NCBI GenBank assembly: GCA_050084985.1
Contig: JBITNC010000001.1
Coordinates: 63,550,001-63,614,000, forward strand
DNA: 64,000 bases
Direction: 5' to 3'
Origin: Nageia nagi
Lineage: Eukaryota > Plantae > Pinophyta
Numbering within the stretch: the stretch's first letter is position 1; each line of letters starts with the position of its first letter. Positions 7,652-47,163 of this stretch are shown piece by piece. Under the pieces are notes generated by a model, which saw nothing but the letters and a program-made list of their open reading frames with translations, searched no databases and was not told the origin of the DNA. The position numbers and the translations under genes were made by a program.

Positions 7652-10600
7652 CTAGGCCAGATCTGATCCGATACTGGCAGAGTTCCACTCCTCGTTGGTG
7701 AGACCGTATGACTCAATAGTCTCCTCCAAGAACGCCACAGTCTTCTGTACACCCTTGGACATCATGCCAACAGTGCTACCATTATGTCGAAAATAATCCT
7801 CTATCTTCTTCGATGTAGCCTGCATCTGGTGTCTCCAGATGACCATCCGCCTTTCATGGACGATAGGATGCCATGCCTTTAGTAAGTTGAGATCATTGAT
7901 GTCAAGATGCTCTTGTATCAGATTCCGAGCCTCAACCAATACCGCCTCCTTTCTCACATTATTGTCCTCCCCTTGGAACTTGAGTTGATAAACATATTCA
8001 CTCATCTGTTCCTCAACCTCCTTTCTCAAGGGGATTCTAATCTTCAGGACTGCGTTGCATTTTTCAAATGCATGGTTCAACCAATCATGATGGTATGTGA
8101 ATTCATGGCAATAGACTAATTTATCAGGATTGTCAGCTTAAATATGCTACAGATGGGAGACGTTGGGAAGATGGCTATCCAACATGCTAAGGTGTGTTGA
8201 GATTTGTGCCTTAAGGTCCCTGATTTCCACACCTTCAACAAGGAGCTTGTAGATTCAAGAAGACAACCTCTCGATAGCCTCTATCATTTCCTTCTTTAGT
8301 TGCTCCTTCATCACTTCCCATCCCTTAAGGAAGGAAGTTTGCTTCTGCAGATCTAAAGGGGTGGTACTGATTTTTTGAAACTCCTTGATGACCTTCCTGC
8401 TAGCTGTGAGTTCTTTTTTCAACCTCTTCACCTACTTATTGGCTTCATACCCCTCCTGATCCATGACTACAACATTCTGAGTGACAATATGTTTACGAGC
8501 TGTCAATCCTAGCTTCATGGGCATCTTGAATGTCTTGCTGACACAGTCTTTTGCCTTTGAGGATGTTTCTCCTTCGAATAGCAATGCTTGATGGAGATTT
8601 CCTTTTGGGAGGTGGAAACAAATGTATCAACCATTTGAATCTTTTCACGATCCGAAAGCTCCTCTTCCTCATCTTCGGAGCGTAGATCTTGGTCTATATC
8701 TTCATCATGAGCTATACTCATGTTCAGGGCTCTAAGGTAGGCATCTAGGTCAAGATTTGGATGGTCGGTTGTTGGCAGGGGAGGAAACCTCTGTATCAAC
8801 AATCATCCTTTGTCGGTCTTCTTGACCTCTTTCATTGGAGTGGTTTGAACTACGACAATGTCCTTGCCTTGGTGCTCTTCCTGCCTTCTCTTCTTCTTCT
8901 GTTCCTCAGTCTCTCCTTCATCCTCTTCATCTCCTCCATTACCACCTATAGATATGCCTTTGTTCCGTGGCTGGGGAGATCTCTCATGGCTCATCCTCTT
9001 TTTGGAGGATTTATGTGAAGAGGAAGGGGACTTCTTCCTATGCTCGACAGGAGAAGGCTTGGAGGCACCCACCTCTCTAACACATTTTTCTCCAATGATT
9101 GGACATCATCATCATATGTTCCAACGTCCAATACCTCATTGTCATCTGGGAGAGTTTCAATGTTTGTCTCATCGGGTGCAGAGGCACCTATAGCTACATC
9201 TTCTTGCTTGGGGACAATGGTAGCATCATCATCATCATCTTCTTCCTCTTCTTCTTCTCTTCCACTATGGCTTTCCAATTTTTCTCCGACATCTTCTGCT
9301 GTATGGCTAGGCTCTTCATCAGTCTCTTCATTGGAAGAGGAAGTGGAACGTTCATAACTAGAACTCGAACTTGGTTGCAAGGGGGGAAATTTCTCTTTGC
9401 ATCTAGGAGAATGAGTGAGCCTTGAAGGGACTGCTTCCGTGGGTGAATCACTAGCACAAGCCTCATCCAGTACATCATGTAGCACGTTCGAGGGGAGAGC
9501 AAGATAGCTAGTGTCCTTAAGATCAGTCATTACTACGCTACGCTTGCTAGGGCTCAGAATGTGTTCCCTTAGAGCCTCTTGCCCCTTTCCAATCGGAAGC
9601 AAGGACGTCTTGATTGATAGAGATGCAATACGAGCAGGAGAAGGAGATGACCTGATCTTGAGAGAGAGCTCCTTAGATCTAGGCTTTGTAGTTCGAGGTC
9701 TCTGAGGTGGTTCGGGGTCTCTAAGGTGGTTTGTCTGCTTGGAGGGTAGCCTTTTTCTTGCTCAGAAGAGCATCTATCCTTACGATCTCCTCCTCATCCT
9801 GCAGATTTCGGTACTTCTCCACATTCCCCAAAAACTTATGCGGAAACGCAATAGGTTTGTGGAATACAATGTTGTAGAAATGTGCGATTATGCTCCTAGG
9901 ATCATAGTTTTTTGTAGCTGCCTCATTTGAAAAGGCATACTGCTCTAGCTCCTTCTTCATATTGGTTGCTTCAACCCACGTATGACACACATATTTTGCT
10001 ATTGAAATAGGCAAGTTGATGGTCACATTCTTCTTCTTCTAGACTTTCTCTTTCAGGAACAAGAGTTGCCTAGCAAACTCCATGAGGATAAGCCTATCAC
10101 TGGCGTATCTTGGCAAGAGTAGGGGTCCCTCCTCTGAGCCATAGACTTTGATGAAAGTATGGTTAGCATTCTATAGGAAGAAATTTGCATGTACACTGAT
10201 AGCTTGGAAAGCTGCATCAGAAATCCCCTTTACCATGGACTTCCCTTTGATATCTTTGTAGATATCATACTCCCATTGGTCAGTTCTCTCACAAAAATAC
10301 TAGAACTTGTTCTGGTACCACCACTTTGGATAAGCTCGCCACACGAGGGTGCTCTTTTGTCCTAAATATCTTTCATCAGCTAGCTCCTTGGATCTGACCT
10401 TGCCATGCAATAATAGGTATACAAGATAGGAGTTCATGTAAAACCTCTTCGAGGAGCCAAAATAAGCTAACTAATGGCGTAGGGCATCACTAATCACCCC
10501 AACCCACCAGATAGCTCTCCCTGAGTTCATAATTGCAATGAAGCCTGTGAACACCCTCTTGTACTTAGTATCATTCTCTTGACCAGTAACCCTAGACAAA

Positions 10601-11206
10601 AGAGTGATCAGTTTGGCCACAACAGGCAAGAACTCCTCTCTGTGAGCGCTGATCAACCTTTGACCTTGAAGATTTTGGTACTCTTCCAGCAACCAAGGCC
10701 GAATGTAGTCCTCAGGTTGGGCTGTGGAATTATGGAATTCTTCAGAGTATGCCAACATGTAATCGCCCCTATACCTTCTCCAGCCAAAGGCTGCTTCAAT
10801 CCTAGCAGGGGAGAAGTCCATGATTACATTTCCCTTTGTGTCCCTTAGGAATCTCTTGTTGTATTCACATTTCTTGGTTACCTCGTAGCACAAGTCAGGA
10901 AAAGGTACTGCAAAAGGCATCATAGTGGCCACATGTGTGGATGAGCTCTTCTGACAATTCCTTATTGATGGAGGTTGTGGAGGCTAAATTCTAGATGGGG
11001 TCCAAGTTTCTCCAGTCTGTATAACCAATAAAGGTGTATCTCCCCTTAAATTTGGCTTTAGGGAGTTCTGGTCTCTCTCTCTCTTGAAACTCAATTAGGC
11101 TCTCTTTCGAAAGCCGAGCCATCTGGTTTTTGGTTACTTGCCTCTCAAATAGCTGCCCTTGAATTTTCTTGGCCCTTGATGGAGGTGGTATGATACTGGA
11201 AGCCAT
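7652..11206 (-). pseudogene. Long uncharacterised ORF of unit A (disrupted)
   Basis: Collinear fragments: TDWRNLDP, PFAVPFPDLCYEV, GNVIMDF, FYMNSYLVYLLLHGK, LPRYASDRL, an acidic linker and a coiled-coil-like C-terminus. Homologous to the ORFs of B-E. Confidence 0.8.
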
Positions 11207-11449
11207 GCAAAAATGTCTGGAATGCCCAAAGAGAACCTAAGGACAAGTCTGGATGTTGTAAAAGATGTAACAATGCAGAACCAAACATGTAGACTTGGGC
11301 TGTAGGACGTCCAACACTCTAAATGAAAGTTGCTTCCTTTCAAATGAGACACATGGAGTATTAATGCATGGCAGGGTGCATGCTCGCCACTTGTCCTTTT
11401 CTCCTCTCAACTTCTGGCGTCTCACACTTGACCAATTTCACCTTGCAAT

Positions 11450-12870
11450 TCTGGGTGCATAGTTTTCAATGAGTGCTTGAGCACTCCTTGAAAAACATGC
11501 GACTGGGGCTTGGGTCACTTAGTCAAATTTCAGAACATAATTCTTCACCACACACCTGGGTGCATGGATCTAGATGAGTTAAAAAGCATGTTTCAAAAAG
11601 CATGCACCTTGAGCTCGGGGCTTTATTGAAATGCCTTAGCCAAAAACAAGCTATTTGGATGAACAACACCCCTCTAGACTCCTTATTTTTCCCCGGCACA
11701 CTGTTTTAGGTGAGTGCAAAAGCATGAGCTAGAAATGGTGCGACTGGGGAAGGATGAAAAATTTGAGATGAAGTGGTAAAATTGACTAAGGGGTGGCGTG
11801 ATATTTATAACTATCTATGTTGCCACATGTCACTTTCGGGTGGTCAATCTATGGGTCAAATGGCAGAGCCAAAACAAGGGTGCATGGTTTTAAAGGGGTG
11901 TAAAAGCATGTGTCAAGAAGCATGCGACTAGGGTCTTAGATACTTAGCCAAATTTCAAGTCAACATTGAAGCTCAATTCCTGGTCGCATCGTTTTGAAAG
12001 GGTGCAAAAGCATGCATCTTAATCCTTGTGCCTAAGGTCTGACACACCTCCCGAGACCAAAAATTCCAAAAATAATTAAAAAAATGTAGGTTTGACACAG
12101 GTCGCACGTTTCAGAGGACATGCTCTTTCTCCCTTGGCTCCACGCAATGTTCCATACAATTTTGCAAACAGAATGACTGATGCTGACTTTCCTCTTATAG
12201 CCATCCGGGTAGGATAGTTGTCATCACATGATAGGTGCAAGAGGGGGTCGAATGCATGCGTTTCCAATTGGCAACAATCTGAACCCAACACTTAGCCAAT
12301 TTTCACCTCATGAATTTGGTCGCATGGTTTGAGTTGGGTGCAAAAGCACTCACTTGAAAGATGCGACTAGCCTTGATTGCTTCAAAAATGGCTAATTCCT
12401 CTTGTCTCCTGGTCGCATGGATTTGGATGGGTGCAAAGCACTCACTTGAAAGCATGTGACAGGACCTATAGGTTCTGAAAACGGCTAAGTATAAATCACT
12501 TCCTCCTTCTTCGCATGAATTTGGACGGGTGCAAAAGCACTCACTTGAAAACAAGCAACAGGCTTTTCTAGAAAAAAATGCTAAGTATGAGAGGCTCCAA
12601 CCTGGTTGCACCGTTTTGGGTGGGTACAAAAGCATTCACTCGAAAACATGCAACTGACTGAAAACACTCTATTTTTGCCTTGAATTTCGACCAAAATGAC
12701 TGTAAACATGAAATGCAATGAGGGAGAGATGAAGTTTCGCAGCATGAGGGACCCTAAAGGTGCAATTTTAAGAGTGAAAATGCATGTGATGATTGTGAAA
12801 ATGCAGCATGAGGCTGGTTGACCGTTTGGGAGGTGTGCAAAAGCACATCCCTCAAAACATGCGACTGAGG
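11450..12870. repeat. Array of ~50-bp imperfect palindromes (A-type)
   Basis: Repeated gtcgcatg...gggtgc-aaaa-gcactc...catgcgac, e.g. ~12319-12367, ~12412-12460, ~11983-12016, ~11879-11928. Confidence 0.8.
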
Positions 12871-14895: not shown

Positions 14896-16185
14896 TTGGT
14901 TATGTTGGCGTTTTACCCATTCAGCATTTGAATGGGTGTCTCACCAAATGAAAAGCGATAGGATCACCTTTGTTTGACTTTGGGGAAATATTTAACTATT
15001 CTTCTTTCCCCATCATTTGGCATGTGGCACCAGAATCAAAGCACCACACATCATCTTTTTGGTTGACATGGATTTGAAATCCACAATTAAGAATATTTTC
15101 TATTGATATGTGCATGCCTTTTAACAGGAAAAGAACATGGTTGAAGCACATGGTGAAAATACTTTACATGGCTACTATGCCAACTAGATACAATAAATTC
15201 TCAACAAATTTAGAGACCAACAATAATTTTAACAAACTTTCTAACTATGACCTTAATGACTATAGCATGTGGGTTTAAACTACCATGGCTACCTAACTGT
15301 CCACTTTTGACTTGGATGTTGAGTTTTTAAGTAATTTCTGATCTGATACTTACCCTTCTGAGTCCTAGATCCCTATCCTTGGTCATGCTCAAATTCGAGA
15401 GCAACAATGAAGATCAATCGCCATCCTTATATTCTGTGACACTGTTATTATGCATCATTGGTTGTTCTATCTTCCATTTGTTGTACTTTATGTGCCTCTT
15501 TTTTTATAATGATAGTATTAGGTGGTGGTTTTCCCTTAATTTCATTCTATTCAGCATTCTTTTTGGTCAAAAGAGCTCAAACCACCTTTCTTCTTGGACT
15601 TTTTTCCCCTATGTTTTGGAGCATGGCGCCTCCAAACTTATCTTCTTCATATACCTTCAACATTTGCTGCATGTGAAAAAATATGCCTCCCATTAGATTG
15701 AACTTGAGCTCTTACATGCAATTTTTAAGCTAGTAATCAGGCTCTCATATTGGTGGGGAAACTTTTCAATGTAGCAAACACTAATGACTTTTCCATGTTC
15801 ACCAACTAATTTTTAATCCCCTTCTACATATGCTCAAGCATACTATCACCCAACTTCAAACTATACAACTTTTTCTTCGTCATCAAGTTATGAGGATCAT
15901 TCTTTTTCTTGTATAAACTATGTAATTACATTCCAAGCTTCTTCAGGACTATTATTGTTACTGTTGTGTCTCCATAACATGCCCCAAAATCTCCAATTTT
16001 GGGGACCCAAATTTTTGCTAAGTCAAGATCATTGAAACTAGAGTCTCATTAATCCTGTCATGGTCACTGGAATCCCATCAAAGAATCCAGTGTTTCTCAC
16101 CTTTCTTAGTCGTAGTCATGTGAATCCAAATTCGAAGAAGATAAAATTTGACTATGTTTGGAATTAGGAGGGTCTAGGGGTCAGG

Positions 16186-17212
16186 CGTAGGTTTCAAAAA
16201 GACCAAATCATGACTTTTCAAAACATGAGCCCAAGTTTAGGAGGTGAGTCAAGATATAAGTCACAAGCACAAGTGCCCGAAAAAGTGTCTAAGTGTTAGA
16301 GTTAAGTCTTTTACCTATACGTGCATTCCAAATAATGTAAGATGAAGATGGTGCACGTTTCAAAAAACAAAACCTTGACTTTTGAAAACGTGCACTCAGG
16401 AGAGGGGCATCTAGGAAGTAGGTGCAAGCTTTCAAAATACAAGAATATGACTTTCCAAAATATGTGCCTAGCTTGAGAAACCTTCCAAGAGAGTTTGAGG
16501 AGCAAATTTAGCTAAGGCATGAATCCAGGGCGTCTGAAAGTGGTTCAAAATTGTACAAGAATACTAGTGCATGTTTCAAAAGACAAAAATATGACTTCTT
16601 AAAACATGCGCCTAGCCAAGAGAGGCTCCTGGTTCAAGCACACACTTTCAAAAGACAAATACATGACTTCCTAAAACTTGCACTAGGTTCAAGATGGTTT
16701 CCAGAGGAGTTGGGGAGGGGGACAAAATGATTAAGGCATGGCTTTGAGACTTTTAGAGGTGACATGAAAATACTCAAAAGGGTTAGCACATGAGTTAAAA
16801 AGACAAAATTGTGTCTTTCTAAAACATGCGCTCAACTTAGAAGCCCCTCAAATCCAAGCGCATTTTTTCAAAAGACAAAAATATCACTTTCTAAAACTTG
16901 TGCTAAGTTCAAGGTGGTTTCTAAAGGGGTACAGGATGCGAAAATGGCTAAGTGTTGATCCTTGAGACTTCCAAATAAACTCAAAATCACCCAAGGAGGA
17001 GATTGCATGTCTTGAAAAGACACAATTATGTCTTTTTGAAACATGTGCCCAAGGAAGAATGACATTTAGTTCAAGTGCATGATTTCAAAAGACACCATCA
17101 TGACATTTTGAAACTTGCGCTCAAGGAGAAAAGTTGTCCAAGTGAGACGCAAGGATGAAAAATACAAAAGTATGTCTTTTAAAAATGTGCGCTAAAGGTA
17201 GAGAGATGTCAA
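16186..17212. repeat. Array of about 10-11 ~46-bp palindromes with alternating short and long spacers
   Basis: Units such as gtgcacgtttcaaaaaacaaaaccttgacttttgaaaacgtgcac (16351-16395) and gtgcatgtttcaaaagacaaaaatatgacttcttaaaacatgcgc (16567-16611). Confidence 0.85.
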
Positions 17213-17451
17213 GACCAGGCACATGAATTTTAACATGCACATGAATTTTAATAGCTCAAGTTGCACATATCCCTAGGTCAACCACCACATTTAATGCACC
17301 ATTTTCTAAACCAATCTTGACCGAGTGGGATGAAATGGAGCCCTAAGTTTGCTATAAAAGGGGAATAGAAACTTCATTTTGCAAACATAAAATCTGTCTC
17401 CTCCCATAGCGTGTGCACATTCCTAGAACAAGAGCGAATAAAACCTAGGGC

Positions 17452-20400
17452 ATGAGTTCAGAGCTAGAAAAAACATTGGTGCAAGGTGTGGGAGATTGTC
17501 CATTTGTTCGAATTCGTGAGCACTCTAAGATGGACGCCTTTGAGAGTAAGTATTCTAGGGAGCTAAGGAGGTTGATGAGGGATAGCATAGTCAAGATGGA
17601 TGAAAGAACAAAAACCCTCTGGTCAGGAGCACATTTCTCCAAGTGCGGTCTCATTGACATTGAAGACACAAATTGGCAATGTGTTGATCCAATGAAGGTA
17701 TTCAAGAGGGTCTTCGAGTTGGATAAGCAGGAGTTGAGGTGTGATCTTCTGTTCTACTCAAGGTTGGTTAGTACCATTGCCATACCTTTCACCGTCCCAT
17801 ACCTAGAGTTGTCCGTGGAAGTAATCAAGAACTTATATCAAAGAGGGAAGGGTGCTTCATGATGCCATAGGACAAGTGATCACGGACTTCAACACAGAAG
17901 GGAATAAGGAAGGTTTTTCGATGGACCGAGGAAGGTGAACATGAGTACATTGAAGAAGAGTCTCTCCTCCTCTACAAGAAGACCTCTAGGTCAAGCAACT
18001 AAATCAAAGAGTGCATGTTTTCTGACTATCAAGAGCCAAGTGAAAATACTTCATCCCTATGGTTGCTAAGATCATCACCATGTTGTCTTGAGTGTTAGGC
18101 AAGGAAGATGACTCCAAGTTTCGGAAGAAGTTCTTCGGGTTCATCATCATGATAAGTAAAGGGAAGAGTATCAAGTGGAGTAAGGTGATCAATGACACAA
18201 TGGCCAGCCAATTGTCCTCCATGGATTCCACAAAAAGATTTTACATGAATTCGTATTTGGTATACTTGCTTTTGAAACTTCTCCCATTGTGAAGTCTAAG
18301 GTGTTAGATAAATCAAAGCCATCTTCAAGCAAGGATCAAATCCAATTAGGGCAATATGCATCCATGTGCCCAAAGCAAACGATAGCTAAGATCGCAAGGC
18401 GAGTTCAGTTGGAGGTGAATGACTTGAGAGAGGTAGGGGATGACTACCCTCTGGACGAGCTAGAAGATGTTGCCATGGGAAGAAAAGTTGGACCCAGTTT
18501 GGATTGAATGAGGCAGTCATTTCTCCCTAATTAGCTTGTAGAGAAGCCATGAAAAAATCAAAGATCAGAAGCCCCACCTTCGTGTTTAGTGCTTGAAGGG
18601 TCAAATCTATCCTCCAGTTCGAAATATGGACCAGATGCATCTATGGAAGGAGAGGTCAGTACACATGCTACCAACACAGTCAATGCTGATGAAGGAGCAA
18701 ATGTCGGGCACACCGAGAAGAGAGATAGGTTAGTTACGATACTCAACGAGGAGCAAAGACCTCCATCATTGAAATGACAAAACTGTCTTCATCAACATGG
18801 AGAAGAATCCAACTCCACGGTTGGTAGTCAAGATGTCACATCATGAGATTTTCTCCATTCATGAACCATCTACACATGCTTTGGAGGGAGGACTTGGCGT
18901 GGAGGGTCCAAGTGAGATTAGTGAACAAGCTGAGAAGAGGAGGCTAGACGTCCCACCAACACAAGGGGCTTCACCAAGGCAAGAAGTAGTCGTTGCTCAA
19001 GGGCAATATATAGAAGCACATCACTTGGGGGCAGATAAAGATTGAGATTTTGATGTAGGCGAATGCCTTGATGTCTTGCGAATGAAATTGGATGATGAAT
19101 TGAAGATGGTGATGAGAAGCAAAAGCAACATGCTAGCGTGACATATGTCAAGATGAAAGATAGATCCGTCCACATCAACACAATGGTCGCAAAGAAGAAT
19201 GACTTCCAAGGTGCATAAGATTTGAGGATACACACACAGGTAATAGAGACAACTCCTATTGGGATAGCAGGAAGGAAGTTCACCGTCATTACTAATACTA
19301 AGGCCAATGCAAAAGATAGATTCAAGAAGGAGAAAGAGATTGTGACGTCCGCTTTGTACTTTTAGTGGGTACAGTCTGGTCACCTTGTACTATATCTATT
19401 TGATGTAGTTGTAGTTGCATTGTTGTAACTTAGGATAGGAGTTTAATGGGTCATTTGGACCCCATTGTGAGCCCCAATTGGGACATCTCTCTTCTAAGTG
19501 GTAGATTAGGCATGTGTTGCATTGGAGATCCCGGATTGTGGGAATCCCAAGGTATGTTTATGCATTTGTGAGTTGGATGTCTACCAACATGCCAACACCA
19601 TATTGGGGAGGGTATCGCCACGTTGGCTCTTGAGGACTTCTGGACCCCCATGTTGGCACTTTAAGTGCTAAGCATACCATGTTGGCATATTATATGATTA
19701 TGACCCCCACGTTGGCACTTTAAGTGATTGGGCCTCTTAAATACCCAATATTGGATTAGATGGGTCTGGGATGACTTCTAGGTGAGTTTGGGACACAGGC
19801 AATGTATAAATAGACATTGGAGCTACAACATTGTGCAACTATTATTGATCATTACACTTATTACAGACCTTTGGGCACAAGTCTTAGCGGCGCTAAGCAT
19901 TTCATTCCTAGGTGGAGCATCTAGAGGGTAGTTAGGCAGTGGTATCCTGATTATCTACGACATAGGTGGAGCACCTTGTCCATTCGATGGCATTTCGAGG
20001 GTTTACTTCTACCTTCAATGGTTATACAAATTTCAAGGAGGACTCCTTTAGTGGAGGGGATTCGGGATCTGAGGGAGTGAATCTATCTCATGGTCCAACA
20101 ACTGTTCAGTGTTGAGGATTTCAAAGCATTGTGCCCTAGTTGGCTCCCTTGAGACCAACAACGACATTGGTATTATTGTTTATCATTCGTATAGCCAGAG
20201 GGCACTTGGATCTCATTATTGTGTTGTGTGTTTCATACTTGTGCATGTGTTGGATCTTGTTGTTTGTATGTACCTATATTCATCATTCGGTGGCACATTA
20301 ATGTAATAGGGTTTGGATTATGCATGTATGAGCTAGATGTTGGGAATTTGACATTGTATCCATTGATTTATGCTTGTATATGCTTGACATTGGCATTCTG

Positions 20401-21283
20401 CGTATCTGAATGTTGAATATGAATGCCCTAACCCTAATGTTGCATGCATGAGGGTTTGATTGTGTATTGTGGATGCCCTAGACCTAGCGTCAGGGCTTGA
20501 TGATCCTGTATTGCTAGTTAAAAGGGAAAATTGATTTTTGGATCATCACATAGATCAAGAGTTTGAAGAAAGAGTTAGCTGCCCAAAGAAAGTTAACCAA
20601 AGAAATTGAGATGGCAAATATGCAACTTGAAGACATCAAGAAGCAGATTACCTTGAACGAGGGGTTGGTGGTCACGAAAGAGGACTTGAGCAAGGAAGTT
20701 GTAGATGCAGTGAAATGATTGATATCCAATCTTTGGAGGTTAGCAAGGGCAAGGGAACGTATGGATGACATCATAGCCAAGGTGACTCGTATGTTTGAAG
20801 AGTTGGACCAAAACTATCCAAACATAGTGGACCCTCGTAGAAAATTGGCTATAGACCTGGGGATTTGCTGTTTTGTAGAGAATATTGGTATCATCATGGT
20901 TGGTTGCGCAACACGAAGATTCAATGTCAAGAGTGGACCAAGGCCATCGCATTCGCATACACGAGGGACAATGCTCACTTGCAGGTGATGAGGTTTAGTA
21001 CGATATCAAATTCCTTTATGATGATGATGTGATTAGAGAGCTTGAGGTGGCTTCTACTGAGACATAGCATATGGTGAAGGACCTGATTTGCACTAATGAT
21101 GTCAATGTCTTCCAGACAGGGAGTCACATTTGCCATGTGATGGAGATACATGCATGGAGGTCCCAGATGGAGTGCATTGTTGAGGAAATTGCAAGGTTCA
21201 TTGATGAGAAAATCCAGATTTATGAGGAGTTCAACTTGGGAGAGGAGTTGGTTGATGAATTCATGGACAACCACTTTGAGTAG
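17452..21283 (+). pseudogene. Long uncharacterised ORF of unit B (deleted and interrupted)
   Basis: DTNWQCVDP, LGKEDDSKFRKKFFGFI, KRFYMNSYLVYLLL, KELAAQRKLTKEIE, DVNVFQTGSH; homologous to C/D/E. Confidence 0.8.
19341..20550 (+). repeat. Solo LTR inserted in the unit B ORF
   Basis: TGTGA...TCACA ends; TSD gagat/tagat; host reading frame KEKEI|KSLKKEL rejoins after removal; TATA-like tataaata at ~19805. Confidence 0.82.
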
Positions 21284-21313
21284 AGTGTTGCAACTTTGAT
21301 GCAACATGCTTAG

Positions 21314-25682: not shown

Positions 25683-27199
25683 TGTTGGGAAGGAAACCTT
25701 TCCTCTTACTCGGCGATCGTCCATACGGTCAAGATGGGAAAGCGACCCAGCATGTAGGTGAGAACGTGTTACTGAACTCCTCTTGTAAGGACTGATACCC
25801 CAAGGTTTCTATCGGAAAGCTTGTGTCGTTAGTACAAGCTTTAAATAGTGTAGGTCTTGTTTGGGAATCAACTGAGTAGTGTAGTAGAGGTAATAATTGT
25901 TAACTCACCTTTTTTGTATGGAATGAGGTGTTTTATCTTGCAATAGTTCGAAAGTTGCTATAAGTTTAAAGAAAGTGTAAAATAAAGAAATGAAAAGGGG
26001 AAGAGAATGTTTCGATATTGGTGAGATGACAAAGAAAAGGTCATAGTGAAGCAGTGTCTAAGGTTTCTCACTTCTGGATCATTCACGAAATCTCATTCAA
26101 AGTCCTCCAACTTAAAAATAGAATAACCTAAGTTCAATCTATTCTTAAGAGGAGTGGGGAGGATAATTGATTGTTGGTACGTTGCAAGCAGGATCGATGC
26201 AATCAAAAGAAAGACACGACACAAGTGCGCACAAACTTCATTTCAAATGAGGAAATCTAATTTGATGTCATAGAGAGAAGAAAAGCATAGAATACGTTCA
26301 CTTACTATGCAAATTATGGATAGGCAACGATTTGGGAGTGATTCAAGAACTTTTACAAATTTTCAGAAATTTTTCCTAAAATTCAAAAATTTTCAAGGAA
26401 AAGTGTGAAAGATCCTTAATCATCTCAAAAAGCCCCAAAATGGTCAAATCCACAGTCTTACAAATAACAAAACTCTTTGTTTAAGTATTCCACCACTTTG
26501 TATTAAATTCTTGTGAAAATTACAAAGATACATCAATTTGCCAATTTTCCACAAATTTGCACTAAAAACATTCTGCCTCAAAAGTGACCCCCTATGGTCT
26601 ATTTATAGACTTTTTAGGTCAAATTTGAGGGTGTTGCCCTAATTTTTAAAAAAGCTTTAAAGTGCTAATTTGAATGCTAAATTGGATTACAATATTGTTT
26701 TATTGGGAGAACAGTCTCATCCCACTCGAATATGCTAAAAATAAAATATTTACAAAAATTGATGCCCTCTGGCATGCATTTTGAAGCTTTTTGCATCAAT
26801 TTGGCAAAAATTGGAGCTTCAAATCCTCATTCTGGATCCTTCTGACAATCTTTTGAGCTTCTTCCTTCTTGAATCTGGATTTGCCCGTGATGTGATCATT
26901 GTGGCAAATTTTCAAGGGATTCTGAGAGGAGTTTTCAAAAAAGTGGAATTTTTGGTCTATTTTTCAAAAAAATGGAATTTTTGGTCTATTTTTCGAAAAA
27001 GATGGGGTGGTTCCAAAATTTGGAAAAATTTTAAAAAGTGGATTTGAGCTCATGGATGGATGGAGGATGGGATTATATGATACTTGGCAAGTTTTTAGAG
27101 GTTTTGAAGCTTTTTAAGAGGTTTTGTGAAGGATTTGGGATTTTGGCAAATTTTTCCATTTTCATGTCTATGGATTTCATTTGGTAGAAAAAAGTGAAA

Positions 27200-28368
27200 T
27201 TTCCATAAGAATGAAAAATGCCTCCTAGATTTTTGAGCCCTTTAACTTGCTCAAATCCAAAAATTTCAGAGTTTGAAGGTGCTTAGAATGTCATCTTCTA
27301 TGCAATGAAGGCAAAATTTTCGAATTTTGAGCAAAATTTGTCAACCCTCCTCAAGTTAGGCGCTAGTTTTCATCTCATTGGAATTCCACACATTTGAAAA
27401 ACTGCCCGTTGCTCAAAATTGAAAATTTGAAGTATTAAATGTGCTTAAAATGCCATTTTCCTTGCAATGAAGTGCTTAAACATGAATTGTAATCAAAATT
27501 TGTCAAATTTCCTCAACTTAGGCACTAGTTTTCAGCCCTATGGATCTTCAATGACATGAAAACTTGTGCCTAGATACTTGAACCCCCAAACTTGCTCAAA
27601 AATGAAAATTTGCAAGTTTAAATGTGCTTAGAATGGGGTCTTCTATCCATTTATGCCTTCAAATCTGGTTTTTGATCAAAAATCTATTTTACTTCTTGAC
27701 TTAGTTGCCAAAATTCATCCCATTGGATTTCAATAGCCATGAAAACATGCGCCTACCCTTTTGGTGCATTTCCCTTGCTCAAAAGTGAAATTTTGTAGAC
27801 TTAAACCTTCTTGAAATGCCCTTTTCCTTGTTCCCAAGCCCTCAAACTTGTGTTTTGAACCAAATTTATCTTTTCTCCTCATGCTAGGTGCCATTTTTCA
27901 GCCTTATGGATTGTGAAAAATATGGAAAACTGCACCTAGCCTTTAGGTGCCCAAAACTTGCTCAAATTTGTGTTTTCCAAGACCAAAATGTGCTCAAAAT
28001 CACATTTTCTATGCATTTGACCCCTCAAACTTGTGTTTTGACCAAAATTTGTCATTTTTTTTCATTCTAGTCGCCATTTTTCACTCCATTGGAATTCCAT
28101 AGCCTTGAAAACCTGCGCATAGCCTTTATGATGCTCAAAAGTGTTCAAAATTGAAAATTTTGAGTATTAAAATATGCTTAGAATTGTGTTTTCTTGTTTC
28201 CAAGCATCTAAACTTGATTTTTGGTCAAAAAAATACTTCATCTTGTCAATCTAGGTGCCATTTTTCATGCCAATGGATTTGGAAAAATTAGGAAACTTGC
28301 GCCTAGCTTTCTAGGGGTCTAAACTTGCTCAAAACTAGAAATTTCGAGACCTAAAGTGCCTTAGAACG
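27200..28368. repeat. ~183-bp tandem repeats, each with a ~55-bp inverted repeat (ctaggtgc...gcacctag)
   Basis: Units near 27356, 27518, 27700, 27884, 28067 and 28251; a further unit at ~34391 after unit C. Confidence 0.75.
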
Positions 28369-29489
28369 TGTTGGGGGATTTTTCTTTCCTACCTTGTTGA
28401 TGGTCAAATGAACTTGCAAGGCTTGTGGGAAGATTCCGACACCTAAGTGGTAGGGCGTTATCCCTACCCGCTATGAGGACTTTACCTCAAAGGTTTGGAA
28501 ATGAAGGTTGCAAGGGTTCACTCAGGCGAAAGGGTGGAGATGTTTAAAGCTGTAGCCAACTCAAAATATAATTTTGTTAATCAAGGACTCAAAGGTTTTC
28601 CAATCCAAGTACAATTGTTTCTCAAAAGAAAAAAAAAGGGAAAATAAAACAAAGTCTGTTGCGAAAGCCGCACAAAGAAAATGAAAAAGAAAGAAAAGAT
28701 GTGAAAAGACAATGATATATGAATTGGGCTCTCAAGCTAAGTTTTCACTGATTAATATGATTTTCTGAAATTGAACTTGTGCGAGTTTGATATAAGTTCC
28801 ATGCACCCCGATTCCGGCTTGAAAGGCGATGACACGAAAATTAATGATGAGAGGAGCTTGGTGCTAAGGCAATGAAAGAAAGGTGAGGCGTGGGTAAGAC
28901 TCAATTTTGGGGGTGAAGTTCTTATGCTAAACAGCATACACAAGTCATCTTAGAAACACATTAATCTTGAGTGCAAACTATGAAACATCACAATGAAACA
29001 CTTCTTGAACTATTTCCAAAAGATATGCAAGCATTCTTTTATCCACCCATTAGGTTTATAAAATGATCCAAATATTCAAGATAACATTCACATGTAATAC
29101 TCATTCACATTCATAGTCTCAAATGAAAACCAGCTCACTTCACTTACTTGAGATCATATCACAATTGCGAAAAGGGAAAACTCGTAAGTTTTAGAGTATT
29201 AATTTAGGTAGTTCCAGTTGCAAGAAATGTCTTATCCTTTCAAATGAGCCCAAATGGGCTATATATAGTTTTTCAGCAACCCAAAGTGTTGCCCTAACCC
29301 TGATTATGATTTCCAAGAAAATCAAATATGGTCCAATAAAAACATGCCACATGGCATCATAAGTTATCTTCCAAGTTTGTGGGAGCAAATCCTCATCCAT
29401 CACAAACTTGGGAATTTATTAACAATAAATTAAAGTCTCCAAATATAAACATGAAATAAATAGTAAATAAAAGACAACAAATGTTATGA

Positions 29490-32400
29490 CTAGGCGGTTG
29501 GTGGGCCCAACGCCTCCACACGTCCATCAAAGTCATCGTCCAAGAATGTGGTCGTGAGCTCCAATCCATGCAACATTCTGATAGCTTCGGCCCATTCTTC
29601 ATCACATTGCGCTCTACCTTGTTGACGATCCTCATCATGTCCTTCTCCCATGTGTGGGCTTTGAGTAAATGCTCCAAGTGACTACCTGTTTGGAAAGTAT
29701 TAATATCCTTGATCATGATGAGACTGTGAAGGAAATGTCTCACTTTTACCACTATAAGGTCTTTGTCACGGATGCCTGCATCGTCATCAAGGAACTTCAC
29801 CTGAAACTCCATCTGCTCAAGACAAGTGTTTGCCTTGTCATTGAGCTTTTGAACCTCCTTTTGCATCTCCTGGAATCGGGTGGTTATCTAGTTAACTACC
29901 CCTAAGTAAAACCAATATTCCTCACAAAACTTTATATCTTCCGGTCTCCGATTCTGTATTATCTCGAACTGCATGATCATGGGCCGCCTAGAATCCAGGA
30001 TCCGAAGGAAACTGGTTCTCTCCATGATGATGTCCTTGAGCTTTTGTTCTTCGAATGCCATCCTCTCTAGTGCTTCAACGAATTGCTGCATTGCCACCAA
30101 GACCTCATCTATATGCTTCTGCTTTGCTGCAATCATACCCTCCTTTAGCGGTTTGATCTTTCGAAGCTCTTCAATGGGTACGTTAGCTGATTCCAATTCC
30201 TTGGTCAATTTCCTTTGTGCGGTTAGCTCCTTCTTGAGGCCTTTGATCTCCTTATCTTTCATCATACCATCTTTGGTGATGGCCTCAGTGTTGGAAATAA
30301 TTGCATGTTTTCGACCAGCCAGACCAATTGGACCTGTATTGATGATCTGGTTAATTTGTCGGAGGTCTTCGGGACATTGTGGATTCTCCTTATCAACTAT
30401 AATGGTCTTGATGTGTATAGCATTCTTAGCTAAGTGCACATATTTTTGTGTTTTTCCTGGAAGGGTGGAGCTTTCTCCAACTTGGTCGTTTTTCTCTTCC
30501 GCCCCAAATTCTCCTCCGACATCCATATTAAACACATCTAAACATTCCTCCATATTGACACCCCACTCCTTCGTGGGTCATGGCTGATAAGTCTCCACAA
30601 CTGCCTCTCGAATAGTAACAACATTCATCTTTACTCTTTTTGAGGGTCTCTCTTCTCCTTGCTCAGCATGCTCACTTGAGACTCCTGTAGCTCGTGACTG
30701 TGGGGTTCTCTTTAATCAGGCCCTCTTTTGCACTATCTTGGATATTGGCTCCTCGTGCTTCTCAGTAGATGGCTCTATTGCTGCTGCCTTATGGGTTTTT
30801 GCCAATATCTCTATAGATTCATCTTGTTGCTGTGCATTTGACATTTCCTTATTCTGGATTGAATTCTCTTCTTGTTCTTCTTCTGATGCTCCAATCTCCA
30901 CTTCCTCTTGATTTTCATCAGGCTTATATGAGGGGCTGGAGGGTGATGATTCGGATGGTGCAACAACTGGTGACCTCTCGATTGTCGTGTTCCTAGCTCG
31001 GAGATGGAGAAGGATCTTTGTGTTTGATTCTCACACATCTCACCACCTTGTTTGTAGCTACTCGCTCTAGTTCCCTTGCGTCATGCTCATCCATGGTGGC
31101 CTGCACTTGTTGTACAACTTGTTTGACTGGCCTTTTGCCCCCCATGGACGTATACTGTCCAACTAGTGTCTCAACGACTGGAGGGAATTGTGTGACTCTG
31201 GAAGTAGACTCCTGAGGTTTTCTTCGCTTGTGCTGTGAGAGTCTTTTATTGATAGTAGCTTCAACACGATGTTGCTGGTCATTTGCATACTTGTGTACCC
31301 TTTCCCTTATTTTCTTCATCTCTATTTCATTGCTGATATTCCGGAAAGGCTCCTCGTCTACAAGTGACTTATGCTCATAAGGTTTCTTCCTTTCCTTGAT
31401 GAAGAATGAGTGCATTCTATGATCTAGATCATAATGGTCGGCAATAGGCATCTTCTTGAAATTGAATTTGGCCAACTCTTCTTTCATGGTTTCCACATCC
31501 GTCCAAAACTTGCACTGATATTCTCCTACAACTATTGGCAAATTGGAGGTAGTCGATTTCTTCTTCCATACTTGCTCGTGTAGAAAGGCCAACTGCCTCA
31601 TCATCTCCATTAATAGCATCTTGTTACTCATGAACCTTGGCAATTGATAGGGTTGGATGGCTGATCCATGTATACGAATATAGGAATAGTGTTGGTGATG
31701 GAGTAAGAAGTCCCCATTCTTCTTCGAAGCATCTTGGGTTGAATTGGAGATCCTAGCAATCTTGATCTCTCCCTTAAGTTCTTTGTATATTCCATACTCC
31801 CATCCATCGTCTTTCATTACAAAACTATCCCATCTCCTTTCCAACTTCCATTTGGGGTAGCATTTCCAAATGGAATGTCTATTTTTCTATCCAAGCTGTT
31901 TCACCCTGAGCTGTATCTCTATACTTGCCGTGAAGCAACATGTACACGAGGTATGAATTGAGGTAGAATTTGCGATTGGTACCTAAGGATGACAACTGAT
32001 CAGCTATGGCGTCGCTTAACACCTTGCTCCATTTAATTCTCCTCCCTCTGGCGATCTATAGGATTAACCCAAAGAAGTCTTTCCTAAACATTGAGGCGTC
32101 TTCCTTCTGAAGGATTCTAGATGACAAGAGAATCATCAACTCCACTGCAGGATAGAAATTGGAGCAAGGAGCATTGATAAGTGCATTTCCCTTCAATCTG
32201 TGATGATCCTCCAACATCTAGCTCTTGATAGTGGTGGCTGCTTTGGGGGTCTCCTGGTAACAAGCTAATGATCTAGCCTCGCTATACTCGACTTCTCCTT
32301 CAGCGATCCACTGAAATGCTGCTTTGATAGCATCCGGGTTGAAATCCATTATGATGTCTCCTTTGATACCTCAAAGGACTCTCTCCCCATTTTGCCAATG

Positions 32401-32713
32401 GTGGCCAACCTCCATGCATAATTCAGGAAATGGAGCTATGAATGGGACTAATGTGCAAGTGGAGAGTTCGGAGAAGAAGACGATATCCTGCTTCAAGTCA
32501 ATGATAGGAAGACCATGAGTGCCTTTCCTCATATGTTTAGGATCAATGTTTTGCCAATCTGTATCTCCGATGGTTGCAAAACCGTTTCTCGAGAATTTAG
32601 CCTCTTGGGGAAGGGCTTGTTGTCTCTCACGAATGGAGATGACACAATCCTATTTCAACCGCTCGAGATCCCTAGCAAAGTTTGAAAGCCGAATTACCCT
32701 TAGAAGAAGTCAT
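29490..32713 (-). pseudogene. Long uncharacterised ORF of unit C (~1,070 codons, several stops/frameshifts)
   Basis: ORF-track pieces 30993-31844, 30716-30901, 29888-30553 and 29393-29866 are collinear with the D and E pieces. Confidence 0.85.
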
Positions 32714-33096
32714 GATGTTCTTACTAGCAGCAGGGCTCCTCAAGAGTGCTATGTGGGTTTCCAGGTAAATTGACACCCATGTTGGATGTTCTTGCCTCCC
32801 AAATGCTTGCGCAAGCCCTAAGGTGGATAAATGATGATGTTTGAGCACAAAAATCTGCAATTTGCCGCTATCCTGGCACAAAAGTAGAAGAGGAGCAAGT
32901 TTTGAGTTTGAGAAAATGAGGTCCTCAAGCTTGTATTTATAGCCCATTTGGCTTCCAGCTTGCCCTAGTTGGCTAGGGTTACTGACAAAACTCATTATAA
33001 CCCTCCACCTAGTCGACCTCAAGATGTGTGCTAGCTCGGAAACTCATACCAAGCTGCTTGTGCTCGAATGTTTGGGTTTTAATACTCAACCTGGCT

Positions 33097-34058
33097 TGGT
33101 GCATGGGAAAATAAGACAAAAAGGTGACTTTTTGAACCATGCGCCAGCCCTGGGAGCTTGTATGCTTCCAACGTTGGGTATCTTGCCTTCATGTTTGCTT
33201 GCCTTGATCGCCTAACTCACCCAGTAACCTGATTTTTCCTGATTCTTGGTCTTTTAGTTGGTTGGACTTGTCAATTTTGGCATTTCATCTCAACTTGGGC
33301 AACCTGTAGACTTGGTGCATGGTTCAAAAAGCCAAGTTTGTGACTTTTTGAGGCATGCGCCAGTCTTGCCTATCCATCTAGCCTGGTCGCATGGTTCAAA
33401 AAGACAAGTTTTTGTCATTTTGAAGCATGCGCAAGCCTCCAGTTGGCCTATTTTTCGAAATTTGATTTTCAAGTGCTCATGCCTTAGCCAAATTTTGATG
33501 TTTCTCGAATCTTGGAGGCTCCATGGGCTTGGTGCATGTCTCAAAAAGTCAAAATTTTGTCTTTTGAGACCATGTGCCAACCCCTCTGGGTATACTTGAG
33601 TTGGTTTTGAGTTTCAACGTCCGGGACTTGTCAAATTTTCACCTTTGCTCAAATTGGCAGCCTTCCTAGGCTTGGTGCATGGTCCAAAAAAGCAAGATTT
33701 TGTCTTTTTGAAGCACGTGCCAGCCTCCTAGGAGGCTCATGGTCATTTTCCAACCCCTGAACTTGCTCAAGTTGCTTTCTTGACCAAATCCCATGGTTCA
33801 AAAAGATAAGATTTTGTCTTTTCAGACCATGTGCCAGCCCTGTAGTGCCTTTGACTTAGATTTTTCATGTTCAGTTTTGCTCCACTCTGCTCCTTGTGTT
33901 TGGCGCATGCCCAAGAAAGACAAGATTTTGTCTCTTGGAGGCATGCGCTGGGCTTGCAAGTGCCCAGATTCCGTCCTTGAGTCTTTCCTTCTATTTGGAT
34001 GACCCCCAAGCCCAATTGCATGGTTCAAAAAGACAAGTTTTTGTCTTTTCAAACCATG
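33097..34058. repeat. Palindrome array of unit C
   Basis: About 8 units, e.g. gcatggttcaaaaagacaagtttttgtcattttgaagcatgc (33389-33430). Confidence 0.82.
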
Positions 34059-37000
34059 GTTGGAGAGGCCTAGTTCGCTTTGATTGAGCTCTGACTCTTC
34101 CTAGACTCCCTAGTTCACCTAAGATCGACTTTTACACTTCCTAGATTTAGCCGTTTTTAAAGATTTTGGAAATCCTATCTTGATGTGACTAACCCTAGAC
34201 AAAGGGAGAGGCTTGAACTATAAGGAGTTGTCCATGAATTTGGGTCTTTGAGACACAGCTTGGGTGGGATTGATGATGACAAAACGAAGTATATACATTG
34301 ATGCATTGAGGGTCCCCAAAATCGCAGAATTTTGGGGAATTTTGTGTTTTACATTTGAATTTCGATGCATTTCCACCTTTTCTCCACAATTTAGACGCCA
34401 AAATTCATCTCTATGGATTTCCCATAGGCTCGAAAAACTGCGCCTAGGATTTGAGTGCCTTAGATTTCGTCAAAATTGTCCTAATTATGATAGAATTCAC
34501 CTTATCTCTCCAATAACATTCTTAGACTTGAATTCCGACACCATTTGCATTTATCTTTGAAAAACATGCACCATATTTCTCTCATTTGGGTCTTCAATAC
34601 TTTAGAAAAAGTGCCTTAGGCTAAGGGTACTAAAACTTGCATTTTCGGTCCATTTTCCAGACTCAATATGTGCATTTCCGGCCACTCCCGATGTTTCCGA
34701 GCTCAAGCTTGACCAAAACGCCTCTTTTCGGTACCATCGATATCAAACTTTGCATTTTTGATGATTTCCGAGATTAAATGGTGCTAAAACGACCACTTCC
34801 GCCTTTCCGAGCTCAGACTTGTCATTTTTCCATCATTTTTGGAACTTCCGGGCTCAAAGTATTCATTTTCGCCCATTTTTGGCATTTCTGGGCCTTAAGT
34901 GTGAAAAAGATCATTTCTGGCATTTTTGGCCATGTTGAGCTCAACTTTGCATTTTTGACCATTTTCAAGCTTTTCAGGTTCAAATGGTGCAAAAACGCAC
35001 ATCTTTACTTTACTGACCACTTCCGAGCTCAAAATTGATCAAAACTCGCCTTTTCGTGATAATGACCATTTTTGACCTTTCTGGGCTGATACTTGACACC
35101 TTAGCTACATCCACTGCTCCCGGACTTAAACTTGAGAAAAACGCTCATTTTCGTCACACTTGGCACTTGTGAGCTTAAAACTCTGAAAAACAACCCTATT
35201 TTTACTGACTGCACTCTAGACTAAAAATCTGTGCTCTGATACTCTATCTCAGATTCTGGCTCCTTGGCTCCAAAATTGGTGACTGGATACTTTGATACTC
35301 TTCAAGGTCTTTGTTGCAAGATCTCCTTGAATCGCTCCCTGATATCACGTTTGCACTCTTCAGAATGAACTATCCGTCGCCAAAAGCCAATCTCAAGGCA
35401 ATGCACCTGATTGCCTTTGCAAAAATAGGGTCCCCAAAATCTTCTATTTTGGGGTGTGTTGTGTGGGCACAACAAGGCCTAGTGAGCTTCCATGCTGACA
35501 ACATGGTTGAGCATGTCTTTCCTAGCTTCTACTCTTCTTCTTCTCCTTCCTCTTCTTCTCTCTCTCTTTGTAATTCAGCGTGGCCCCTCCTTGACCACCC
35601 CATCCTACATTGTATCTCGTTTGGTTGGGTGCACATGATTTAGGGCTTTGACCTCCACTTATACTTTTGTTTGGCTGGTATAGGCTTTATGTTGGGCTAC
35701 TTTGAGCCTTTTTTGGTAATTTTAGCATTCATGTACTCTCCAGACCAATTGACTGCTTTTAGTCACCTGTGGACATTAATATATTTTCTTTCTTTCTCAG
35801 TCCTGTTGTCTCTCATAGCAAGACAAAGAATAAACAAGAAGAAAAAAGCAACATATGCAAGAACTAGAAAAAGCACAGAAAACTTGGTGGAGGAGAATTA
35901 ATCTCTCACCACCCAATTTTTGATAGCTTTTCAATTTTCCCACATATACAATACAGTGGACTGGTACATTTTTAGATTAAAAGAGGGAGATGCATAGTGC
36001 ACAAAATGTCCAACATGCACTACACACTACACAAGTACTCTCATGCGAAACCCGTAACTTTTAATTGAAACAATATGTTATATCCCTACATACATTAAGC
36101 ATTAGGACTCAAGGAGGCAGTATTGATAAGTACTAGTATACACTATACATTACATTTCATTGATTTCAACAATCTATAGTTTATTCATTGGTCATACTAG
36201 CTTGGTTTTAGATCGATGTTTCATTTCTGATTGTAAGACCAGGTGGAGTAAATTTTTATATTTACATTTTTATTGATTTGCATCAGTCAGAATAAGAAGC
36301 AACACATCAATTCCAAATTATTATCTTTTTTGTTTCAGCAAAATGATCTAAGTATTTGAAACTAAAGTACATTTCTATTAGCCTGCCATACCATGGCTGC
36401 AATAAAAAACCAAAAAATTAACATAAGCCACGTAGGCCAAAAGACTATTCTTCCCCCCCTCCCTTATTGATGGGGACTATAGATGCCTAAACATAGACTG
36501 AAGCCTGCACATGGACAAGGATGCTATAGGTGCTTCACAAATATTCAGCCACATGGCGGATAAATATGAACTAGGACACCCATTCATCTTCCCTTGGCTG
36601 GCTGAAGTGCTTGAGCCACGTTTGACGTCACTCCCCATTCATTGCCAACAGCATTGTTATGTTAAACTTTGCAGTGAACTGCTCAATCTCCTTAGTTTGC
36701 TTGTGAATGTGTTTTGCAGTATCAAGGAGGCTGGAACTGCATGTTGGCTTATGTTTTAATTTGCAGGTAGTATCACCAAGTTTGCAATCGGGATCTTGTC
36801 CTTTATTGCCGTTTCTAGGTGCTTGCCCAGCTCCTTGAACCGCTTCTAATATTGTTCATATTTATTCCCCAGTTTCACGAAGTTTGAGTAGCCTGTTTTG
36901 CTTCCACCTCTTGCACTTTCAAATCCTCAAGCTCTACCAAATTCAACTTCTGTTGCATTCTATCTAGATCTTCCTCATGCTTGGATCCCATTTCTGCTTG

Positions 37001-42821: not shown

Positions 42822-43928
42822 TTGGAGTTCAGCTAGGACCTGTTGGGTGGTTTTTCTTTCCTACCCTAAAGTAGTGAGAAAAGCTCCAACACTTCAAGTG
42901 AAAGGATGTTACTCCTTCCCGCTATGGGGAGTGGTCACCCCAAAGGTTAGCTCCATGTCTTGGCAGAGATAACACAGGGACTGGCTGAGATGTTTAAAGT
43001 TGCCACCAACATGAATATCATATATGGATTTAAGGGACTTTGAGTTTTGCACTTTGTTGTTTCAGGAAATTGCTAAGGGAAATAATGGGTGCGAAAGCTG
43101 AAAAAAAAAGTTTAAAATAAAATAAATTGGTAGAAAGACCGTGGGCAGTAAAATGCAACTACAGGCATGCGGATTCACGGGCTTGGGATAATATCCTCAA
43201 AAGTCAACTTGCTAGGTCTCGACGTAGGTTTCAAGCATCCTCAATCCATCCCACTAGCCAACTACACAAATTGTCTAGTGGAAGGAGCGTGAAGTTGTGG
43301 CAAGGATGGAATAGGACGGGATGGAGGTAACATTCAATGATCCAGGTGAAGTTCCTATTGTGAGCGACATCAACAAGACATTTTTAGGTATCCAAGCCTA
43401 AAATTGCAAATGACGAAATACCACAAACAAGATGCTAATCAACCACTTCATAAGATTTCCAAGCATTCTCTTATCCACTCCATACAATTTACAAGATGCA
43501 CCAAGTGATTAAAATCAACACAAAGTAGTGATAGAACAAACTAGATAGCATTGTCATTCATTCATTCGAATTCGGCATTACAACATGAGAGCATATAAAC
43601 ATAATTACATTCACATACACCACATTTAACAAATTTAGAGAATTTTTGTGTTGCAAGCAAAAGTTCCTTCAAATTGTTAAAATGTCAATTCCCCTTTACA
43701 ACTTAATCAAAATGGGGTATAAATAGTTTTTGAGCAACTAACAGTGTGTCCCTAACCCTAATTGCGAATTACGAGAAAAACAATATAGTCCAATAAAAAG
43801 TTGCCACAGGGCATCACAAGATCCCTTCTATACTTGTGGGAGCAAATCCTCATCCGTCACAAGTTTGGGAATAAAATAATATTTTATAAAGTATTTTTCT
43901 GAAAATAAAATAAAACTGAAAATAATAA

Positions 43929-46900: not shown

Positions 46901-47163
46901 AAGGCACAATTAGAGATATCGGGGAAGAACACAATGTTTTGTTTCAGCTCATTGATTTGCATACCCCATATCTTATCCCTCCTCTACATGGGGTCTACCT
47001 TTTTCCAGTCTGTATCTCTAATTGTGGCAAACCCATTCTTAGAGAACTTAGCCCCTTGGTGTAGGGTTTCTTTGCTCTCACGAATGGTAATGATGCAATC
47101 ATGCCTTAATGTTTCTAGGTCTCTTGGAAAGTCCTTGGCCGAATTGCTCTTTGAGGTAGTCAT
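43929..47163 (-). pseudogene. Long uncharacterised ORF of unit D (~1,075 codons, few stops/frameshifts)
   Basis: ORF-track pieces 46984-47172, 46342-46962, 46012-46266, 45623-45901, 45167-45598, 44919-45143 and 43959-44759 are consecutive parts of one protein. Confidence 0.87.

Follow-up and report, generated by a model that had tools for sequence, protein, structure and literature searches.

A palindrome array of subfamily-specific type upstream of a gene with a predicted VANC-like fold in a decayed, high-copy repeat of Nageia nagi

The window analyzed here is a stretch of 64,000 nucleotides of Nageia nagi DNA, in which one family of open reading frames (ORFs) recurs in five units, named A to E. 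We read unit A as one of five decayed copies of a high-copy repeat of about 6 kb, whose ten upstream palindromes would be docking sites for the VANC21-like protein of its own subfamily, and give this reading a probability of about 45%. In Arabidopsis, VANC21 serves the transposon VANDAL21 as its accessory protein and is described as binding YAGTATTAY words (PMC5735166). The step from gene to palindromes draws on structure models: since the predicted fold is like that of a DNA-binding plant transposon protein, the palindromes are likely that protein's own docking sites.

Five units with a common layout

The ORF family was found at exactly five places of the window, each adjoining a palindrome array. 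The search combined tblastx, tblastn (13 proteins of the family as queries), and an HMM of the family, which was run on all stop-free window pieces of at least 25 aa. Stops and frameshifts break the ORF in all five copies. Units, ORFs and arrays have the following positions; where no strand is given, none was assigned.

7655..11236, minus strand: ORF remnant of unit A, with its start near 11206 and the N-terminal domain at 9949-10983, interrupted by stops and frameshifts
11453..12868: array of unit A, ten full copies and one half copy of an imperfect palindrome of about 50 bp
16176..17201: array of unit B, nine palindromes of the B variant, core AAAGACAAAAnTATGACTTT
17449..21300, plus strand: ORF remnant of unit B, found by tblastx, tblastn and the family HMM
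28366..34351, minus strand: unit C, both ends set by comparison with E; ORF at about 29400-32720
33090-34070: array of unit C, eight palindromes
43679..48255, minus strand: unit D, both ends shortened relative to C; ORF from about 47172 down
46345-46983, minus strand: stop-free ORF piece of unit D, used for a structure model
47543-48244: array of unit D, five palindromes
53634..58826, plus strand: unit E; ORF from about 55190
54012-54818: array of unit E, five palindromes

One layout is common to all five units: a palindrome array, then 250-400 bp, then the start of a single long ORF. The array of unit A begins at 11453, about 250 bp upstream of the ATG near 11206, and in each unit the palindromes are confined to the 5' side.

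At the DNA level, C, D and E are 66-79% identical in the self-comparison of the window. The alignment of C with E extends over about 6 kb (76-79% identity), while their flanks are unrelated; from these common ends within unrelated flanks, the length of the unit is set at about 6 kb. The remaining two units are related to the others through protein alone, as seen in tblastx and in the alignment. Unit A gives no blastn match to B-E at E 1e-5, although the proteins align, and blastn of B against C-E yields a single match of 60 nt, to C, although here, too, the proteins align.

The ends of the unit were studied in C and E. No terminal inverted repeats were seen in their end alignments, self-blastn found no direct repeats between the ends of either unit, and no target-site duplications were recognized at these ends. 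Pfam, applied to window ORFs of at least 95 aa and to ORFs of 55-94 aa between units, detected no transposase, MULE, integrase or RT domains in or between the units, nor gag, RT and IN domains in the units. With no transposase domain in or between the units, the element is not a VANDAL. Two further classifications were rejected: an LTR retrotransposon, as there are no long direct repeats at the C and E ends and no gag, RT or IN domains, and subterminal repeats of the CACTA/hAT type, as the arrays lie at one end and terminal inverted repeats were not seen.

At an identity of at least 80%, the Logan contigs that cover unit A and its array number 8294, 3897, 3202, and 1508 in four runs from three samples; with a length of about 200 nt, the contigs are too short to connect an array with an ORF. 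In the run search, four runs with a small share of the window sequence were listed, and no RNA run was among them. Their differences from unit A are mostly transitions, which is expected of a methylated dead repeat.

Judged by its sequence, the window contains many decayed mobile elements. At 640-3930 (plus strand), several broken ORFs make up a fragment of a Ty3/gypsy chromovirus, with protease, RT, RNase H, integrase, SH3_Tf2-1 and chromodomain. Just upstream of unit E, at 52276-52751 (minus strand), two adjacent ORF pieces match DUF659, a hAT-type transposase domain (E 1.6e-10 and 9.5e-9). Downstream of the shortened end of unit D, at 40014-41366 (minus strand), an open frame of 450 aa gives a sub-threshold match to the copia-type RVT_2 (E 0.0057). 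A match to the C-terminal domain of adenylosuccinate lyase (E 5.9e-18) comes from an ORF of 70 aa at 60822-61031 (plus strand), which is probably a host-gene exon, the sole one seen in the window. Two young tandem duplications, both unrelated to the palindrome arrays, were found at 49049-49334 (142 bp in two copies, 97% identity) and at 51925-52280 (185 bp in 1.9 copies, 90% identity). Just past the 5' end of unit C, the region 34500-35300 is rich in repeats with recurring TTCCGAGCTCA words; it includes a 52-bp palindrome at 34948-34999, in which 17 of 24 arm positions pair.

Palindromes: scaffold, cores and constraint

According to the original prediction, the A repeat at 11450..12870 keeps the palindrome geometry of the other units, with the outer arms and the 4-nt centre, while its inner arms differ from those of B-E and yet remain self-complementary. 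Both statements hold. Ten full copies and one half copy could be aligned, starting near 11453, 11558, 11694, 11878, 11982, 12100 (the half copy), 12319, 12412, 12509, 12604, and 12815. Their spacing is 93-336 bp, with a tandem period of 93 in 12316-12550. The majority sequence from the alignment of the region is CTGGTyGCATGGTTTTGGATGGGTGC-AAAA-GCACTCACTTGAAAACATGCGACTGG, with the core arms GGGTGC/GCACyC. In this consensus, 18 of 27 positions form Watson-Crick pairs and six more form G.T pairs; for scale, the binomial chance of at least 18 pairs in 26 is 2.6e-6. The inner eight positions of the consensus account for six Watson-Crick pairs and one G.T pair, and the A and B-E types are mutually exclusive.

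The single copies are less regular than their consensus. None of them matches exactly the idealized string of the original prediction. From a reading of the alignment, at least five of the six inner pairs are present in just five of the ten full copies, namely those at 11453, 12319, 12412, 12509, and 12815. Four copies at 11558-12033 have GCATGn as the right inner arm and retain one to four of the six inner pairs. The best-kept copy is the following.

12319..12367: GTCGCATG-n9-GGGTGC-AAAA-GCACTC-n9-ATGCGAC

This copy is without the C of the right CATGC; as single-stranded DNA, its folding energy is -12.6 kcal/mol (z -4.7). The missing C, at 12360, is present in part of the Logan contigs (14, 10, 6, and 2 in the four runs). 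Part of the contigs also have an extra A after 12434, which restores the AAAA centre of the next copy. At 12509, 12510, and 12518, positions at which the window copy differs from the consensus of the palindromes, nearly all contigs carry the consensus letter, and at 12452 it is found in all contigs listed for run X1.

The two core types occupy separate parts of the window. The A core GGGTGCAAAAGCACTC, with up to three mismatches, has seven matches in the window against 0.58 expected, six of them within 11471-12848; none of 100 shuffles reached seven or more. The B-E core AAAGACAANNNNTTGTCTTT, likewise with up to three mismatches, has 28 matches against 1.46 expected, which are distributed over B (9), C (8), D (5), E (5), and a stray site at 29818, and it has no match within 11450-12870. 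In C, D and E the core reads AAAGACAA/TTGTCTTT, of which B carries a variant. Common to the palindromes of A and of B-E are the GCATG/CATGC outer arms, a T-rich shoulder, and the 4-nt centre. From the consensus strings of A and C/D/E, each arm can be read as sharing GCATG and a TTCAA/TTTTCAA shoulder, whereas the inner eight positions per arm are identical at just 0-2 of 8.

A third kind of core occurs in an array that we call type F and that surrounds unit C.

27197..28366: type-F array without a family ORF beside it, tandem units of 183 bp, palindrome CTAGGyGCCAtTTTTCA..ATGGAwTTCCA..TGAAAACnTGCGCCTAG
34388-34453: further type-F copy, on the opposite side of unit C

Seven copies and one partial copy of type F were aligned. 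The core is centred on GGAATTCC in the best copies, while the outer scaffold is close to that of A. Neither the family HMM nor tblastn on the window revealed a family ORF beside the array. Because F copies are present on both sides of unit C, this unit appears to have been inserted into the type-F array. By its consensus, type F supports the pattern of a constant scaffold with a variable core, and it shows that arrays can exist without the family gene.

The palindrome is under constraint. This follows from three observations: palindromes are conserved relative to their spacers, their pairing is specific to one register, and the Logan contigs carry the consensus letters. Among the tandem units of A (four units of 93-98 bp), the identity is 80.3% (241/300) in the palindrome columns versus 39.9% (101/253) in the spacers. 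For C and D together (seven units of 111-114 bp), the values are 75.5% (716/948) versus 41.8% (575/1374). When the pairing partner is slid by one to three columns, A retains 32-45% pairing instead of 76.7%, and B-E retain 29-48% instead of 70.6%.

This contrast between palindromes and spacers also bears on the possibility that a chance palindrome expanded neutrally into satellite-like arrays, which would be alike through recent duplication or gene conversion and would have no function. Tandem arrays do expand readily, and type F is an array that no family ORF adjoins. However, spacers that are near random (40-42%) next to palindromes at 75-80% in the same tandem units are not what such an expansion would leave behind, nor are one geometry with three different cores and an array upstream of the ORF in five of five copies. 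We consider a neutral origin very improbable.

Covariation between the arms gave a different picture. In B-E (27 copies), 70.6% of arm positions are paired versus 70.4% in shuffles, a value reached by 243 of 500 shuffles, so that covariation is not significant. In A (11 copies), it is marginal with 76.7% versus 73.8%, reached by 17 of 500 shuffles, a level that related sequences can attain without any structure. Arms that are altered together were seen just between the types, i.e., between A and B-E and also in the orphan type F. Of the earlier proposal that dyad symmetry is selected, the register-specific pairing and the better preservation of palindromes than of spacers therefore speak in favor, while the predicted arm covariation was not borne out. 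The symmetry looks like two conserved half-sites rather than a hairpin: symmetry without compensation in the single copies fits arms that are each held to one half-site, as for a symmetric dimer.

Hairpins are nonetheless part of two competing explanations. The best-kept single copies fold into hairpins at z -4.7 to -7.5, as is the case for any palindrome. According to the first explanation, the palindromes act as RNA hairpins in a 5' leader or upstream transcript, e.g., as small-RNA precursors or in translation control. Besides the hairpin potential of single copies, several G.T positions of the A consensus would pair in plus-strand RNA. On the other hand, covariation does not exceed column composition in B-E and is marginal in A, and the plus strand of A is antisense to the A ORF. 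Rfam 15 gave no match in the whole window at the gathering score, on which grounds a known RNA family was rejected. In sum, a role as RNA hairpins is improbable.

The second explanation, which we regard as unlikely, takes the arrays as cis sites for transposition, be it as subterminal repeats or as a hairpin origin or recombination site. They would be used by the enzyme of an autonomous partner, and the units of the window would be its non-autonomous passengers. Such a partner would account for units that contain no transposase, integrase or RT domain although the A family is covered by thousands of contigs, and the stable DNA hairpins of the best-kept copies would suit this role. The arrays, however, lie at one end alone, no terminal repeats, inverted or direct, were observed in C and E, and the B-E palindromes are without compensation between the arms of single copies.

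Relatives and predicted fold of the protein

In a shared block of 75 aa, the protein of unit A is 42-46% identical to those of C, D, and E and 55% identical to that of B. B in turn is 56-65% identical to C/D/E, which are mutually 72-81% identical. As had been predicted, A has the most divergent ORF. In the protein tree, which has 39 rows over 111 columns and is limited to rows with at least 60 residues in the block, A forms a clade with P0005, P0009, P0037, P0008, P0006, and P0020 (support 100/99). A second clade joins D and E to P0004, P0011, P0013, P0026, and P0032 (97/97), and B is placed next to this D/E clade (90/85).

Throughout the window, the array type follows the ORF clade, with A first, then B, then C/D/E. 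The stronger claim that array and protein have co-diverged as a recognition pair was upheld in part. Type follows clade, and the protein is predicted to fold like a DNA binder; on the other side stand the type-F array, which has no ORF, and the linkage of array and ORF on one element, due to which co-divergence needs no functional coupling. The match in rank, with A farthest, B intermediate and C/D/E alike, comprises the three array types for which an ORF is available in the window, and is only consistent with a recognition pair.

A profile of the window copies, searched against 1.84 billion protein representatives, retrieved 279 relatives at E<=1e-3, 96 at E<=1e-10, and 22 at E<=1e-30. The sources of 20 relatives were looked up: 16 come from Logan only, three from JGI/IMG only, and one from both. 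Two of these 20 are named 'hypothetical protein', and the rest are nameless. Most relatives are fragments. The longest, P0115 with 1010 aa, has conserved N-terminal 400 residues followed by a long Glu/Lys-rich tail, and by its composition this C-terminal half looks coiled-coil-like. In unit A, the middle of the ORF (8994-9761, minus strand) is of low complexity, rich in Ser, Pro, Glu, and Asp, and includes a run of acidic residues; it has the look of a disordered linker that joins the N-terminal domain to the C-terminal part.

Sequence comparison connects the family to no described protein in the collections searched. Pfam gave no family for nine window pieces (hmmscan, E<=1), only unrelated weak matches. 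Among 14 relatives, it returned nothing for 13 and a sub-threshold HlyD_2 match for one. DUF1985, DUF287 and PMD were absent from both sets of matches. The profile search of PDB sequences did not find VANC21 and returned chance matches to radial-spoke and DotZ proteins alone. A word-indexed protein search gave no match with the D piece, and with the profile it gave P0019 itself and two fragments alone. The best score of the D piece in the ESM Atlas was 0.80, which is below the useful level. Metagenome contigs, queried with the alignment of P0102 and P0115 and with P0019, yielded pattern matches, none of which was confirmed by tblastn.

Structure models were obtained for the intact relative P0019 (pLDDT 80.6, pTM 0.79; alignment of 41 rows) and for the D piece 46345-46983 (pLDDT 87.5, pTM 0.83; 49 rows). 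Compared with 48,161 PDB chains by VIA-align, the one aligner on which the fold match to VANC21 rests, both models have 9lnk_A in first rank, a chain of the crystal structure of VANC21 with its target DNA. Foldseek gives no support to this likeness: neither model has a match at E<=1e-3, 9lnj_A appears at rank 7 for P0019 (E 3.4, TM 0.24/0.31), and for the D model it is absent among the best 50 rows. No solved PMD structures were among the fold-search matches. Going by the models, the ORF protein likely has a VANC-like fold.

The predicted fold also has to be weighed in the main rival explanation. Here, host transcription factors would read the palindromes as promoter or enhancer repeats, and the subfamilies would have recruited different factors. 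Words of the CATGC and GACA/TGTC types may resemble targets recognized by plant B3-domain factors. In each of the five units, the array ends 250-400 bp before the ATG, the place expected of a promoter, and the conservation of palindromes relative to spacers is likewise in line with this explanation. Yet, for a host factor, a 50-bp site composed of a subfamily core and a common scaffold is long, and the GACA/TGTC word is absent from the A core. Moreover, the only gene that the element carries is predicted to be similar to a transposon protein that binds DNA sequence-specifically. On balance, reading by host factors is rather unlikely, and docking of the element's own protein remains the preferred reading.

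Known systems and a possible mode of action

In Arabidopsis, the words bound by VANC21 are described as dense and often tandem in the non-coding parts of its own element, and VANC21 as removing the silencing marks at these target words (PMC5735166). Related VANDAL families are reported to have different VANC proteins and different words (PMC5735166; PMC10398659). As far as modeling can tell, the Nageia units show the same elements as this VANC pattern: the predicted fold, a coiled-coil-like tail, an upstream array of words, and a word specific to the clade. The likenesses concern a transposon accessory protein, whose predicted fold is closest to the DNA-bound part of VANC21, words repeated in tandem in the non-coding DNA of the own element, which here are putative targets, and a word and a protein that both differ between related subfamilies of one genome. 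With regard to the tail, VANC21 is predicted to self-associate via a coiled coil (PMC13547354).

There are clear differences as well. Unlike VANC, the ORF has no sequence match to DUF1985 or DUF287 in Pfam, and unlike VANDAL elements, the units are without the Mutator transposase (VANA) or other VAN genes. Their arrays are found solely upstream of the single ORF, which again is unlike VANDAL. While the VANC21 motif is given as 9 bp, arrayed in one orientation (PMC5735166), the site found here is a palindrome of about 50 bp. VANC has been called dicot-specific (PMC13547354).

A second comparison leads to the plant mobile domain (PMD). DUF1985 of VANC is reported to be similar to the PMD of MAIN, MAIL1 and MAIL2 (bioRxiv 10.1101/2024.09.27.615353; PMC13547354), and PMDs are described also in Gypsy and MULE elements (PMC5418596). 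The PMD-C protein MAIL2 has been linked to a palindromic promoter motif, and direct DNA binding by MAIN, MAIL1 and MAIL2 is given there as not yet demonstrated (bioRxiv 10.1101/2024.09.27.615353). The Nageia sites are like MAIL2 in their palindromic motif, and PMD-C itself is described as structurally similar to DUF1985 of VANC (bioRxiv 10.1101/2024.09.27.615353). Unlike PMD-C proteins, the window ORFs have no match to the Pfam PMD model (PF10536). In addition, MAIN, MAIL1 and MAIL2 belong to the host's own genes and act at host promoters that have single short motifs, unlike the arrays found here.

Short binding words near the ends of an element, read by a protein that the element encodes, are also found in the TNPA sites of CACTA transposons and the subterminal hexamers of hAT transposons. 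These arrays are located at both ends beside terminal inverted repeats and serve transposition. The arrays of the window resemble them in having many copies of a short word near an element end, and differ from them in being present at one end alone and in having no terminal repeats that we could find.

If the palindromes are docking sites of the subfamily's own protein, the following mechanism would be the most likely. Each palindrome would be bound by a dimer of the protein, whose two subunits would occupy one half-site each. Subfamily specificity would come from the variable core, while the shared outer arm and T-rich shoulder would be a common contact. A row of such sites would lead to dense loading of protein on the element's own promoter region, and by analogy with VANC this loading may keep or restore promoter activity against silencing. 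Activation would be limited to copies of the same subfamily and would thereby allow subfamilies to coexist in one genome.

Taken further, and only tentatively, the units may represent an undescribed, very abundant family with a self-recognition module that consists of a VANC/PMD-like binder and 50-bp palindromes in its own promoter. Specificity would be rewritten via the core alone, with at least three cores (A, B-E, and the orphan F) in one genome. This broader interpretation is somewhat doubtful; if true, it would extend anti-silencing of the VANC type beyond Mutator elements, by means of dimeric palindrome recognition. Should the palindromes not be bound by the protein, the array would be an ordinary, neatly organized promoter repeat of an unclassified family.

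To our knowledge, sequence-specific self-activation by a transposon protein has been documented in detail solely for the Arabidopsis VANDAL elements. Finding the same logic in a second family that looks unrelated would suggest that a protein paired with its own landing pad is a general route of escape from silencing, and that this pairing also splits transposons into non-interfering subfamilies. Distinctive of the family presented here are the thousands of covering contigs, the long palindromic sites, and the swappable core. The series of cores on a constant scaffold, from A through B and C/D/E to F, would constitute a natural experiment on the joint change of a DNA-binding specificity and its site.
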